Made by a program: the position numbers and the translations under genes. Below are positions 1-48,621 of a stretch of DNA of 64,000 nucleotides, piece by piece. Position 1 is the stretch's first letter, and each line of letters starts with the position of its first letter. The stretch spans positions 1 to 64,000 of the forward strand of contig JAWAFD010000002.1 in the NCBI GenBank assembly GCA_038890745.1. Reading direction: 5' to 3'. The notes under the pieces were generated by a model. That model was not told the DNA's origin, searched no databases, and was given only the letters and a program-made list of their open reading frames with translations. The DNA comes from Candidatus Anstonellales archaeon. Lineage in GTDB: Archaea; Micrarchaeota; Micrarchaeia; Anstonellales; J096.

Positions 1-278
1 CTTTGCTCCTAATAAGATAGGGGGGTAGAAGCGTGAGGGGGGAATAAGAATATGCTTAAGTCCCCCCTTGGCTAGTGGAAGAGGCAGGTGATGCGGCGAA
101 ACAAGTGCGACCCAGAAGTTTAGGTGGTTTGGGTCGCACCGAAGCCCTTCGGGTTGTTTCACCGCATCAGGGGGTCTGAGAATAAGTTAAAGTACCCCCT
201 GGTCTAACTTTTGCTCGTATAAGATAGGGGGTGGAAGAGGCAGGGGGTCTGAGAATAAGTTAAAGTACCCCCTGGTCT
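1..278 (+). repeat. Cluster of tRNA-intron-related repeat modules (5' end cut by window edge)
   Basis: 38-bp exact direct repeat at 168-205 and 241-278; TTTTGCTCGTATAAGATAGGGGG at 209-231; diverged copy at 2-80; all match the introns at 45528-45663 and 48472-48607. Confidence 0.9.
89..169. mobile_element. MITE-like palindromic insertion
   Basis: Terminal inverted repeats 89-104/154-169 (15/16 match); inner stem GTGCGACCCA/TGGGTCGCAC; interrupts GAGGCAGGGGGTC, which is intact at 237-249. Confidence 0.5.
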
Positions 279-280
279 CA

Positions 281-427
281 CGGGCCCGGAGGGATTTGAA
301 CCCTCGACCTTCGCCTTTCTCCAAAAACTTCTAAAGACATTAATGGATAGAAGCTGAGGACCACTTACTACTCTTAGACCCTCCGGCTTAGGAGAGCGCC
401 GCTCTATCCAAGCTGAGCTACGGGCCC
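281..427 (-). tRNA. tRNA-Arg(CCT) with 72-nt intron at 37/38 (317-388)
   Basis: Acceptor GGGCCCG/CGGGCCC, D-arm, GGTTCAAATCC T-arm; anticodon CCT at 392-390; central helix CTCC/GGAG. Confidence 0.9.
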
Positions 428-45410: not shown

Positions 45411-45677
45411 GCCGAGGTCGCATAATCCGGTAGTGCGTCGGTCTCGAATAGCCCTTTTTCGCCTTTGGCGAAAAAGCATTTAATCGGAAAAGAGAAAACC
45501 GATCCCGCAAGGGATTGCAGGTTCAAAACCAAACCTAGGGGGAAGTTTCCCCCTAGGTTCCAGGTCTCCTCCTTAACCCCCTCATTTTTGCTCGTATAAG
45601 ATAGGAGGGTTGGAGTTAGGGGGCTCATCTAATAAGCTGAGCTCCCCCCCTGGCTGGTGGAAATCCTGCCCTCGGCG
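45411..45677 (+). tRNA. tRNA-Ser(CGA) with two introns (37/38: 45449-45496; 59/60: 45528-45663)
   Basis: GCCGAGG/CCTCGGC acceptor, anticodon CGA 45445-45447, long variable arm TCCCGCAAGGGA, T-stem GCAGG/CCTGC split by a BHB intron. Confidence 0.92.
45528..45663 (+). repeat. 136-nt structured T-loop intron, copy 1
   Basis: BHB: TTCA/TGGA helix with AAA and AAT bulges; 92/96 identical to copy 2. Confidence 0.88.
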
Positions 45678-45759
45678 TTTAATATCTTATCTAAAGCACA
45701 CGCAGGGCCAAAATGATAGGGGGTGAATGGCATGCATATCCCCCGCTATTCTTGAGATA

Positions 45760-46326
45760 TTAACTTAACAAACTGAATAAACCAAACAGGATGAATAGGA
45801 TAGAGGTGATTGCGTTTATCGCTTTGCTTGGAATTCTCTCTGCAAGTTTTGTGCCTATCGAAACATATATTGCGATCACTAATGCAAGCGCTGAAATCAA
45901 TCCTAGTAGAACAAGGATGGGAGACTGGTATCTAGCAGCCAATAGACCCGAGGTTATTTGTGTCTTGTCTCCAAATTCACTAATAAAAACTGTTAGAAAT
46001 AAAGTTGCCAATGGCAGTTTGGTTGAAATCTTCTTTTTATTTCTTTTGACTCTAATGAGATATGGCTGAGCAAAAGTCCATAATCCAAAAAGAATAAACA
46101 AAACAGCAATTAATATTTTGATTAGATCAAATGGTAGATAAAAACTAAAAAGGGCACCAACCAAAATACCAAGCACATCCATCAGCACCTGAGCAGATAA
46201 CCCAATAAGAAAAATCTTGACTGGTGATTTATATTTTAATGCTAAGCCCAGGATTACCAGTTGGGATTTATCAGCGATCTCTGAGATTAATACTAATACA
46301 AAGGTAGCGATTAATGGTTCAAGCAT
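45760..46326 (-). CDS. TMEM165/GDT1 (UPF0016) Ca/Mn transporter
   Basis: EIADKSQ and EFGDKTQ motifs; start uncertain. Confidence 0.92.
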   Translation of the reverse strand: MLEPLIATFVLVLISEIADKSQLVILGLALKYKSPVKIFLIGLSAQVLMDVLGILVGALFSFYLPFDLIKILIAVLFILFGLWTFAQPYLIRVKRNKKKISTKLPLATLFLTVFISEFGDKTQITSGLLAARYQSPILVLLGLISALALVIAIYVSIGTKLAERIPSKAINAITSILFILFGLFSLLS

Positions 46327-46434
46327 ATTTTCTAGTTTTGAGTAAGGGTTTAAAAATACCACCGCTAACTTCAGCGAAAAGCCCTAACTCTTTTGCTTGA
46401 TATAATATCCATCATATGCTCTTTTAAGTGTGTA

Positions 46435-47070
46435 TTATAAAAAATTCTTCTTTTCCTCCTCTTTCTCCCTCTTCTCCCTCTCCAACATTTTCAATTTTCT
46501 TTTTAAGAATTTCCTCATCGCTTCCCTGTTGTTTCCTGCGTATTTCGTATAGAGTGCAAGCATCACGAATATTTTGTTCGGCAAAAAACTCAGCTCCTCA
46601 ATGGTTATCTCTCCCTTTGTTTCGAGCATCGCAAGTGCCTTTTTCACAAGCTCTATCCTGCTTGTTCTTTTTCCCTTTCTCTTCTCAAAATACTTAAGCA
46701 ATCTCTCCGGGTTATCTATTTTTTTGAAAAGAAGCCACTCATAAATTTTGAACCTTTTTGCACCTATTCTGTGCAGCCGGTCTATAAGCGCCTCTATCTC
46801 ATAATTCTGCTTTATGTGGTGGAAGTGCGAGTATATTATCTGCTCTTTTTCATGCTTTCTCAATTCTAAATAGTGCTCATAATTCATTGGGATGAGAAGC
46901 TGGTGCTTCTCCATCTCCAGCTCAACTTTACTGAGTTTTCTTATCTCCTCTTCTACGGGCTGGGTGATCTGTAAGGTAAGAGGTTGCTTTTCTTCCTCTA
47001 GTATTGTCACCAACGCATCTAACCTAGAGGGCTTTAGCCCTGATGCGTTGACGGGGGAGTGACTGAACAC
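46435..47070 (-). CDS. Hypothetical protein
   Basis: 211-aa ORF, GTG start. Confidence 0.6.
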   Translation of the reverse strand: MFSHSPVNASGLKPSRLDALVTILEEEKQPLTLQITQPVEEEIRKLSKVELEMEKHQLLIPMNYEHYLELRKHEKEQIIYSHFHHIKQNYEIEALIDRLHRIGAKRFKIYEWLLFKKIDNPERLLKYFEKRKGKRTSRIELVKKALAMLETKGEITIEELSFLPNKIFVMLALYTKYAGNNREAMRKFLKRKLKMLEREKREKEEEKKNFL

Positions 47071-47108
47071 ATTAAGTATTCAATGAGAATTTTTTTAAAC
47101 CCTTCTTT

Positions 47109-48359
47109 TTAGCCCTTCTCCCTTTTACCTCTCTCAACATACCTTATCTCGTTCTTTTCAATCGGCATTATCGTATCCATGGCCGATTTTTCTATCTCCT
47201 TTATTTTCTTACTGGAGTGAAACAATAGCCGCGTATAGTCATACTGCAGCGCACCTGGCACCACCCATGTTAAGAGGGATGAGAGGAAAACAACCCCGGC
47301 GGTAAAACTTAGGATATCAATCGTGAATGCCGGTGAAAATTCTTTTGCCATGATCATCGAAAACTCTCCAGTCGATATCATCAATAATCCTATGAGCGCA
47401 GATTTTGCCCAGTTATTATTTGTTGCTATCAGCATGAGCGTTGATGAAGAAAGTTTCGCGACGCAGCTTACGAGAGTAATTATTATAATTGCAAAAGCAA
47501 AAACGGGATTCAGGAAAAATAGGATGTTTGCATTCATACCTAATGAAAGGAAGAATATTGTTATAAAAAGCGAGGTGAGGATGTTCATTTTTTCTATTGT
47601 GTTTTTCAACCCCATTTGCGTTGAGGAAAGAATGCCTGCGATGAAAGCACCAATGCTCTCAGGGACTGAGAAAACATGCGCCACAAGAATTACAACAACT
47701 GCGAGCGCTATGTAGAATAGAAAGTATGTTTCATCATTTTCAGGAAGGTGCCTTGCAACCATTCTTGAAATGCCGACTATCAAAAAAAGCGGAATAGCAA
47801 ACATCAGCATGCTTACCAACGCAGAAATCCCAACACTCCCGGTTTTTATGAACGATGTGGTAAAGAGGATAAAAAGAACAGCAAACAGATCCTCCCATAT
47901 AAGTTCTACATACATCGTTGTCGTTTCCCTTCCATAAACTATTCTAAAATCCTGCAATGCCTTGGAAAATATTGCAGTACTTGTAATCGAGAAAATCACG
48001 CCAAAGACTAATGCTTCAAATGGTGATAATGCGAACAGAAGCATTCCAACAGCGCCAACAACAGCCGCTGTAAAACCCATTTTCATAATAGAGATACCAA
48101 GTGAGTTTATCCCAACCTTTTTTATCAAATCCACCCTCATTTCCAAACCTATAAGATACATTAAAAGAATTGCGCCTATGGAAGAAAATATATCTATACT
48201 CTGTTGGTTTATGATTGAGAAACCATTTGGCCCGGCAAGCGCTGCGATTATAAGAAGGAGAGGAACGGATGGAAGCCTGAATTTTGCGGAAATAAAACTC
48301 GCTATGAATGCAAGCGTGAGCGCGATGAGAAAGCCGAGCGGGGTTACGGAAACATCCAT
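47109..48359 (-). CDS. Cation:proton antiporter (CPA2/Kef-like)
   Basis: LMYLIGLE, TSTAI, IWEDL, GAFIAG, GEFS. Confidence 0.9.
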   Translation of the reverse strand: MDVSVTPLGFLIALTLAFIASFISAKFRLPSVPLLLIIAALAGPNGFSIINQQSIDIFSSIGAILLMYLIGLEMRVDLIKKVGINSLGISIMKMGFTAAVVGAVGMLLFALSPFEALVFGVIFSITSTAIFSKALQDFRIVYGRETTTMYVELIWEDLFAVLFILFTTSFIKTGSVGISALVSMLMFAIPLFLIVGISRMVARHLPENDETYFLFYIALAVVVILVAHVFSVPESIGAFIAGILSSTQMGLKNTIEKMNILTSLFITIFFLSLGMNANILFFLNPVFAFAIIIITLVSCVAKLSSSTLMLIATNNNWAKSALIGLLMISTGEFSMIMAKEFSPAFTIDILSFTAGVVFLSSLLTWVVPGALQYDYTRLLFHSSKKIKEIEKSAMDTIMPIEKNEIRYVERGKREKG

Positions 48360-48413
48360 AAACCTAATTCTCTAGTTCAGTTTAAAAATATTCTTTTACA
48401 TTAATTCTATCAC

Positions 48414-48621
48414 GCCCCAGTAGCTCAGTGGTAGAGCGACCGCCTCGTAAGCGGTAGGTCGTGGGTTCAACACCAAACCCAGGGGGAAGTTTCTCCCTAG
48501 GTTCCAGGTCTCCTCCTTAACCCCCTCATTTTTGCTCGTATAAGATAGGGGGGTTGGAGCTAGGGGGGTCTGAGAATAAGTTAAAGTACCCCCTGGTCTG
48601 GTGAGAATCCCATCTGGGGCT
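48414..48621 (+). tRNA. tRNA-Thr(CGT) with intron at 59/60 (48472-48607)
   Basis: GCCCCAG/CTGGGGC acceptor, ACCGC-CTCGTAA-GCGGT anticodon arm, T-stem GTGGG/CCCAT. Confidence 0.93.
48472..48607 (+). repeat. 136-nt structured T-loop intron, copy 2
   Basis: BHB: TTCA/TGAG helix with ACA and AAT bulges; 48564-48599 identical to 170-205 and 243-278. Confidence 0.88.

Follow-up and report, generated by a model that had tools for sequence, protein, structure and literature searches.

The DNA considered here is a stretch of 64,000 nucleotides (nt) from contig JAWAFD010000002.1 of a Candidatus Anstonellales archaeon (GCA_038890745.1), a hot-spring Micrarchaeota genome of 0.99 Mb and 94 % completeness that is called G000 below; the whole stretch is referred to as the window. 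In the window a tRNA-Ser(CGA) gene and a tRNA-Thr(CGT) gene each contain an insert of 136 nt between bases 59 and 60, in the T-loop, which raises the question of what these inserts are and how such similar DNA came to lie in tRNAs of different isotype. An earlier note on the window had read the insert as a single RNA element that moves between T-loops and is removed by splicing. Each insert was found to be a bulge-helix-bulge (BHB) frame filled by an inverted doublet of a hairpin unit of about 60 nt, and this unit is a dispersed, modular, tRNA-anchored repeat, most copies of which lie outside tRNA genes.

Two inserts in a bulge-helix-bulge frame

The two host genes and the parts of their inserts are as follows.

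45411-45677, forward strand: tRNA-Ser(CGA) gene with two introns (exons 45411-45448, 45497-45527 and 45664-45677); the spliced form is tRNA-Ser(cga) by ARAGORN
45449-45496, forward strand: 37/38 intron of tRNA-Ser(CGA), 48 nt; its start resembles the small F3 intron family
45528-45663, forward strand: 59/60 intron of tRNA-Ser(CGA), 136 nt, family F1; BHB frame and inverted doublet of hairpin units
45532-45584, reverse strand: 5' (head) unit of the Ser insert, inverted; conserved in the genus, with relatives throughout the order; the conserved stem mismatch is lost in this copy
45585-45655, forward strand: 3' unit of the Ser insert, with G-tract, spacer, G5-loop-C5 hairpin and loop type Z; the spacer is identical to that of the Glu(CTC) intron at nt 79-96
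45656-45663, forward strand: 3' BHB frame of the Ser insert, consisting of GG, the helix partner TGGA and the bulge AA
48414-48621, forward strand: tRNA-Thr(CGT) gene, with C59 (exons 48414-48471 and 48608-48621)
48472-48607, forward strand: 59/60 intron of tRNA-Thr(CGT), 136 nt, family F1; a patchwork in which nt 1-41, 42-83, 84-99 and 100-132 are each identical to other F1 introns
48476-48528, reverse strand: 5' (head) unit of the Thr insert, carrying the conserved C.A stem mismatch
48529-48599, forward strand: 3' unit of the Thr insert, recombinant, with a TTG-type spacer and loop type X; one of 10 TTG-spacer units with that join
48600-48607, forward strand: 3' BHB frame of the Thr insert, consisting of GG, TGAG and AA

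The coordinates and lengths first given for the two inserts were exact, as were the count of four mismatches in the first 96 nt (at nt 9, 23, 79 and 89) and the AATAAG loop common to both; over the full 136 nt there are 19 mismatches. Both inserts begin after base 59 and end with a 4-nt partner of T54-A57 followed by a 2-nt bulge. T54-A57 (TTCA) pairs with TGGA in the Ser gene and with TGAG in the Thr gene, which gives the helix of 4 bp flanked by two 3-nt bulges that had been described for both, and removal of the inserts restores the T-loops TTCAAAT (Ser) and TTCAACT (Thr), again as described. After splicing in silico ARAGORN recognised a perfect tRNA-Ser(CGA) and a perfect tRNA-Thr(CGT), the former when its 37/38 intron was also taken out. 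This 48-nt intron had been overlooked earlier, and three of the four pairs of its central helix form (by inspection). At the 37/38 site of Ser(CGA) the sister genome G002 has a different insert and the sister genome G001 has none.

G000 encodes an EndA of 375 aa, whose closest solved relative is the epsilon2 EndA of ARMAN-2 (Ca. Micrarchaeum acidiphilum; PDB 4FZ2, E 2e-88, 370 aa), and an RtcB ligase. With the BHB, the restored tRNA and the presence of EndA and RtcB, every sequence feature of the archaeal BHB intron class is found. The ARMAN-2 epsilon2 enzyme cleaves a 59/60 intron in vitro (PMC3239211). By analogy with that cleavage, and with an epsilon2 EndA and RtcB in the host, splicing would be expected, and the earlier proposal that the inserts are BHB introns removable by this enzyme is retained as a prediction from the BHB, the restored tRNAs and the presence of the enzyme. 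A second EndA-like protein of 147 aa is encoded at L022:1339-1782, beside the paralogue set of the epsilon2 enzyme. In G001:C35 and G002:C38 about 1.3 kb interrupts the RtcB match in an intein- or intron-like manner, in G002 as one frame of 936 aa; in G000 the match is continuous.

Compared with 200 shuffled sequences, folding z-scores were -5.5 for the Ser and -3.4 for the Thr region, and both regions surpassed all 200. The BHB fold is not the predicted minimum, but lies 2.9 (Ser) and 5.8 (Thr) kcal/mol above the minimum free energy at 37 °C. The three hairpins previously seen in the insert are the two unit hairpins and the pairing between the two inverted G/C tracts; their enclosure by CCAGG/CCTGG is present in the Ser fold and absent from the Thr fold. 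As had been stated, the inserts have no open reading frame, with stops in all circular frames. In a search of Rfam with gathering and E-value thresholds no family matched the inserts, as the view of a new element had presupposed; the matches were to tRNA, plus one to RNase P in L269. On the two genes themselves the standard tools failed, ARAGORN and Rfam missing Ser(CGA) and giving wrong ends for Thr(CGT).

Misassembly through a collapsed repeat, the error feared at the outset, is unlikely judging from junction coverage in the contigs of four sequencing runs. In run X1, possibly the source run, contigs at a single-copy depth of 60-64 cross both Ser junctions and the 3' junction of Thr with at least 31 letters, whereas at the 5' junction of Thr there are only 30 letters. 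Contigs of a different sample (X3) likewise cover Ser 5' and Thr 3', and those of a different study (X5) cover Thr 5'. The common middle of the introns appears as a collapsed piece of 55 nt at depth 200; among the contig pieces listed none spans an entire intron and none contains a joint that skips one. The phasing of 5' and 3' exons is supported by their pairing in the acceptor stem in each gene.

A dispersed hairpin unit at tRNA genes

The element does not exist in two copies, as had been assumed, since seven tRNAs carry introns of its family. Among the 42 annotatable tRNA genes of G000, 25 have a 59/60 intron, and these belong to three families: F1 in seven genes (both window copies included), F2 in four and F3 in 14. 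The F1 introns are 131-407 nt long. A partner of at least 80 % identity in another tRNA was found for 20 of the 23 introns at 59/60 caught by the census pattern, and the near-identical F1 introns support the earlier suggestion of recent spread between isotypes.

The unit consists of a G-tract, a spacer, a G5-loop-C5 hairpin and a short tail, and the 5' half of the insert, once reverse-complemented, matches this pattern just as the 3' half does. The pattern has 55 matches in G000 compared to none in each of five block-shuffled genomes. Fourteen matches lie inside tRNA genes, 29 downstream of them, three upstream and nine beyond 600 nt, so that 41 are outside tRNA genes, mostly in arrays adjoining tRNA 3' ends. 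Altogether 46 are inside or at most 600 nt from one of the 42 tRNA genes, which cover 5.5 % of the genome, although these proximity counts are non-independent owing to the arrays. Of the nine more distant units four adjoin tRNA 3' fragments and three are at contig ends. Units occur on both strands, as tandem arrays and as inverted doublets, and the first unit behind a tRNA 3' end is placed hairpin-first in all 10 cases in G000, at a distance of 2-15 nt, mostly 2-3 nt. A tetramer GTAG, GTGG or GTTG stands 6-8 nt before the G-run arm in 40 tabulated units and is not found in the head unit.

The window itself contains one free array with its anchor.

1-278, forward strand: free tandem array of 3'-type units (hairpin cores 37-73 and 243-278; nested palindrome of 81 nt at 89-169)
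281-427, reverse strand: tRNA-Arg(CCT) with a 37/38 intron and without a T-loop intron, the anchor of the array

The array stops 3 nt short of the 3' end of tRNA-Arg(CCT), and on the other side it runs off the start of the contig. The 81-nt palindrome is nested at a single fixed point of the unit, at times in tandem; in the Leu(GAG) intron it is inverted. Its terminal inverted repeats are 16 nt long, and G000 has it at about 13 places besides 89-169 of the window; the related forms of L053 and L086 have opposite orientations and a duplication of 5-6 nt.

The Thr intron is a mosaic of four blocks, each an exact match to sequence of the Glu(CTC), Ser(GGA) or Trp intron, and it breaks the usual linkage of spacer and loop (the only one of 10 to do so). 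From the mosaic blocks and the broken linkage, its diverged 3' hairpin is likely a swapped part and not the outcome of drift. Mosaic breakpoints are located in G/C runs. At Ala(CGC), Ala(GGC) and Thr(GGT) a tRNA 3' fragment together with a unit is repeated in tandem. The arrays at G000:C1:179294-179794, C2:313720-314089, C1:252068-252358 and C2:227695-227900 are made of units alternating with duplicated 3' fragments of tRNAs; the array behind Ala(GGC) contains an Ala(CGC) fragment, and that at C2:227.8 kb a 3' half of Leu/Ser type with no 5' half nearby.

Orthologous tRNAs were compared in three genomes of the genus, G000, G001 and G002 (completeness 94, 82 and 88 %), of which the latter two are 46-48 % identical to G000 at four-fold sites. 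The F1 head unit is identical to the five genus homologues tested at 51-55 of 58 nt, whereas the 3' half differs; identity figures for the 3' half are alignment artefacts and were left unused. The occupant of the 59/60 site changes between G000, G001 and G002: it is F1, F2 and F3 in Thr(CGT), F1, none and F3 in Ser(CGA), and F1, F2 and none with a copy in the flank in Gly(CCC). At Gly(CCC) G002 has the unit in the flank alone, and G001 has it in the intron too, the head sequence being the same at the two places. Among the Thr orthologs retrieved from other genera of the family none has a T-loop intron. Only three of 54 introns end in TA, and these are all three Ser(GGA) orthologs, across two intron families. 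The TA ends suggest that the frame stayed while the inside changed, which would imply replacement of the interior by DNA recombination. In all 54 introns the helix is intact, and C stands opposite base 57 only in hosts with G57 (13 of 22, compared to 0 of 32 with A57), but both of these regularities are in part a product of the search filters and are not counted as evidence.

A covariance-model search of related genomes, one of the checks proposed earlier, gave matches to the head unit in 40 of 150 genomes of the order, in six families (model of 17 seed rows, with rough E-values). Among the best matches of the 27 genomes outside the genus, 16 adjoin or lie in tRNA sequence (by eye): eight directly follow a 3' end or belong to an array at one, two start inserts in the T-loop region and six are on the antisense strand, one antisense unit adjoining a tRNA 5' end. 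The T-loop-region inserts begun by the unit in another family are in L269 and L278. Two of the 27 matches are themselves seed rows, both of them non-tRNA. A direct duplication of 15-55 nt ends at the unit head in eight of the 27 loci compared to none of 98 control positions, and breakpoints range from the anticodon arm to the 3' end. In 16 of the 17 seed rows the same stem position is left unpaired; it reads C.A in the pre-tRNA and, on the opposite strand, T.G as a wobble. Two of the 13 hairpin pairs have changes on both sides (among kin that are not independent). When a T-loop junction pattern was used for scanning, 17 genome and 52 metagenome stretches were found, of which three and seven passed the hairpin filter; several of these duplicated sequences already in the set, and the further lineages obtained were L053, L066/L071 and L086 only. 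A different tandem hairpin repeat lies directly behind the tRNA-Thr genes of L108 and L124 (G007), in another genus of the family.

Routes by which the repeat may have spread

The proposal that the 136-mer moves as one unit, as RNA, and targets the T-loop does not agree with units placed mainly outside tRNA genes and on both strands, with the mosaic Thr intron, or with the lack of reverse transcriptase (RT) in the three genomes of the genus. Movement at the DNA level is favoured by the two orientations, the antisense insertions, the inversions, the mosaics and the tandem arrays. That a dedicated protein takes part is less certain, and is suggested by the conserved head, the stem mismatch and the fixed polarity of the junction. 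In our judgement the chances are about even that the inserts are two inverted hairpin repeats in a BHB frame, that the repeat moves as DNA via such a protein, and that its T-loop copies survive through EndA/RtcB splicing. The repeat would then be an origin to which newly gained tRNA introns can be traced.

The course of events could be as follows. To begin with, the unit is dispersed, modular and anchored at tRNAs, in both orientations and in tandem arrays. A protein would recognise the imperfect hairpin in single-stranded DNA and link its head to DNA nicked in or close to such a gene, the gene being that of a tRNA, and copying back across the target would at times leave a duplication of 15-55 bp. 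Host recombination or gene conversion through the G/C runs, to which mosaics and orthologs point, may exchange parts of units among introns and flanking arrays, and would often replace the interior of an existing 59/60 intron with the 3' frame kept. Selection would act mainly for an intact BHB and for an insert that folds away from the tRNA.

Several observations weigh against this explanation. Y1, RT, IS110, tyrosine recombinase and Rep_OBD were not found in the three genus genomes, the DDE and serine-recombinase families not being included in that search, and the unit shows no co-occurrence with Y1, RT, integrase or Cas1 in 121 genomes (p 0.32-0.61). Eleven of the 27 order-wide matches are away from tRNAs, and 19 of the 27 have no long duplication, which is background level. 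The recombinant join of the Thr intron is not visible among the contig pieces listed. The argument from retained TA ends concerns one locus. Base 59 is kept when the intron family changes (C59 in Thr in all three genomes), and so precise a junction is also compatible with an RNA route; an exception is Gly(CCC), with A59 in G000 and T59 in both relatives. Horizontal exchange, or selection at the RNA level, could account for the conserved head unit, and splicing is a prediction from sequence.

In the co-occurrence test the unit-positive genomes were 34 of 121, and their overlap with Y1, RT, integrase and Cas1 was 11, 10, 20 and 5, compared to 9.0, 7.9, 17.4 and 6.5 expected; the test assumes that the handles G000-G120 are common across samples, and it includes related, non-independent and incomplete genomes. 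Tyrosine recombinase (PF00589) was found in none of the 19 genomes of family f1, in which there is thus no XerA-like gene either. An IS200/IS605 origin was rejected, as the genus has no Y1, the ends of TnpB elements differ, and the TnpB-domain match of G000 is only a weak zinc ribbon. G002 does have TnpB; by eye the flanks of TnpB and IS110 are unlike the unit, and a guide/target pairing scheme gave no fit by eye either. None of 30 Y1 loci was matched by a profile built from the G000 units. A Rep of pMV158 type was likewise rejected, with none in the 19 genomes.

It is possible that no dedicated enzyme is needed and that hairpins with G/C runs have spread among tRNA loci by replication slippage, template switching and gene conversion, with selection for the BHB filtering the copies in T-loops. 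The lack of a transposase, RT or integrase linked to the unit agrees with such passive spread, as do duplications that range from none to 55 nt, the location of the mosaic breakpoints and the tandem fragment-plus-unit copies at the two Ala genes and Thr(GGT). A passive process does not readily account for a head-first junction that stays at 2-3 nt from the ends of many different tRNAs, for a mismatch conserved in nearly all seed rows or for a head conserved far above neutral sites. We regard it as unlikely, though deserving attention.

The RNA route of the earlier note, in which excised introns would be reverse spliced into pre-tRNAs or their 3' trailers, copied by an RT from outside and recombined into the genome, is less probable than that. 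It would account for the exact 59/60 junctions with the host base 59 kept, and for the sense, head-first polarity at all 10 of the 3' ends in G000. Variable long duplications, which resemble target-primed reverse transcription, are in line with it as well; RT matches occur in 28 of the 121 genomes of the order, and RtcB is present. None of the three genus genomes has an RT, though, and there is no co-occurrence. Six antisense insertions at tRNA sequence, one of them adjoining a 5' end, are difficult to derive from RNA, as are both orientations in one intron, the inverted palindrome, the mosaic introns and the abundance of units outside tRNA genes.

We consider it quite improbable that the units are relics of arms or attachment sites of tRNA-integrating viruses, islands or casposons, with the doublets as empty mini-elements. 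Duplicated tRNA 3' fragments do flank units, and integrase matches are found in 62 of the 121 genomes. Intron gain borne by attP has been proposed for Caldiarchaeum (PMC3293823), and a casposase targets a tRNA 3' end with a duplication of 15 bp (PMC5137440). The family genomes have no tyrosine recombinase, though, and the variable breakpoints leave no constant crossover point. A casposon origin was rejected on the grounds that Cas1 of G000 belongs to an ordinary CRISPR locus and that Cas1 was not found in G001 and G002. Pattern scans of viral sequences gave 0, 3, 0 and 2 matches, none of them true (three in coding-like DNA without a hairpin, two without the other parts of the unit), and BLASTN of phages and plasmids gave no match to the unit.

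The idea that the circle, once excised, works as an RNA in its own right (as a guide, a ribozyme or a scaffold for protein) and that this function maintains the family, for which no positive evidence was obtained, has the slightest chance of all, since against a 5' part of 58 nt far more conserved than neutral sites, stable folds and the two pairs changed on both sides among kin there stand the absence from the inserts of an Rfam match, C box, ACA, hammerhead core and open circular frame, rRNA complements limited to single ones of 10 nt, a 3' half that is freely replaced between species, lengths of 131-407 nt within one genome, an irregularity that is a C.A mismatch in RNA and a T.G wobble on the other strand, and a Thr(CGT) without such an intron in the genera sampled outside the genus.

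If movement as DNA by a dedicated protein is taken to its most specific form, the unit may represent an undescribed class of non-autonomous mobile DNA in Micrarchaeota: a mismatch hairpin of about 60 nt put head-first into tRNA-shaped single-stranded DNA, on either strand, by an enzyme other than Y1, RT, tyrosine integrase or Cas1, leaving duplications of 15-55 bp, with the doublets acting as self-excusing BHB introns. We offer this tentatively and would sooner doubt it than accept it. Should it be true, the hairpin element would be the missing vehicle of tRNA intron gain in archaea.

Relation to known systems and other observations

Near-identical introns across isotypes, as seen here, are reportedly also a feature of the transposed tRNA intron families of Thermoproteales (Fujishima et al. 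2010). In families of that type the whole intron would be the copied unit, whereas in G000 the copied unit is smaller than the intron. Further differences are that the donor pool is visible here as free arrays at tRNA 3' ends, that the introns are recombinant doublets, and that the phylum and the type of EndA are others. Intervening sequences with near-identical partners make up 28.3 % in Thermoproteales and 1.5 % in Asgard archaea, figures obtained by a different method, and for Asgard archaea the same report gives no general route of intron gain (bioRxiv 10.64898/2026.10.13.758758). In a review the mechanism of intron transposition in Thermoproteales is called unknown and a DNA-level route is supposed (PMC4090602). 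With donor copies outside genes, recombinant introns and changing 59/60 occupants visible together, a DNA route could here be distinguished from an RNA route by population reads. The 59/60 introns of ARMAN-2 have the same position, BHB geometry and type of EndA; the substrate there had 13 nt, compared to 131-407 nt here in introns built from a repeat that is also found outside genes (PMC3239211).

The unit also resembles the bacterial repetitive extragenic palindromic (REP) sequences, bacterial interspersed mosaic elements (BIMEs) and REPINs. Like them it is a short palindrome, imperfect through a conserved mismatch, and it forms inverted doublets as well as mosaic arrays in tandem (PMC3333891, PMC3116915, PMC6006769); the conserved stem mismatch is a REP trait (PMC3333891). 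The unit differs from them in that no RAYT (TnpA-REP) or Y1 is linked to it, that it is anchored at tRNAs and not spread through extragenic space, that some copies have long target duplications, and that it is predicted to be spliced as an intron. Its tetramer is at most a possible counterpart of the GTAG-type tetranucleotide of REP sequences, since it precedes the G-run arm and is not at the foot of the hairpin. It thus works like REP/BIME DNA without being a member, there being no RAYT and the anchor being tRNAs, and the inserts are BHB introns with REP-like cargo, a real feature that was partly misread at first. In archaea only the IS200 subclass of Y1 is reported (PMC6006769), and a REP-like family across an archaeal order without RAYT hints at a novel mobilising enzyme. 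The fixed-length target site duplication of miniature inverted-repeat transposable elements was not found (15-55 nt in eight of 27 loci, background in 19). Casposons and other tRNA-integrating elements resemble the unit in a target near the T-arm or 3' end of tRNAs and in a direct target duplication (PMC5137440, PMC3293823); in contrast, no solo Cas1, PolB or integrase is linked here, the duplication is not of fixed length, and the element measures about 60-140 nt. A description of this repeat family was not found in the literature searched, which included few subscription journals.

Some further features were observed in these genomes. G000:C3:22000-35100 (L302) is a type III-like CRISPR-Cas locus with Cas4, Cas1, Cas2, a large Cas10-like open reading frame and 54 spacers (names by eye); compared with the genome, the 54 spacers gave only scattered matches of 16-22 nt, which were not mapped unit by unit. 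Elsewhere in the order, contigs G108:C71, G106:C11, G116:C9, G042:C87, G048:C4 and G094:C38 each carry an RT match and an integrase match 3-6 kb apart, and these neighbours are likely RT-bearing integrative elements. In G000, tRNA-Gly(GCC) (C1:15939-15724), tRNA-Met (C1:37929) and tRNA-His (C2:307867) have C55 in place of the usual T, and their orthologs vary; editing or adaptation to the intron helix is possible. At G000:C5:13000-21800 (partly L167) there are tandem divergent gene pairs with conserved N-termini and variable C-termini, in a cassette- or shuffling-like arrangement, and two diverged copies of the hairpin unit lie between the pairs.

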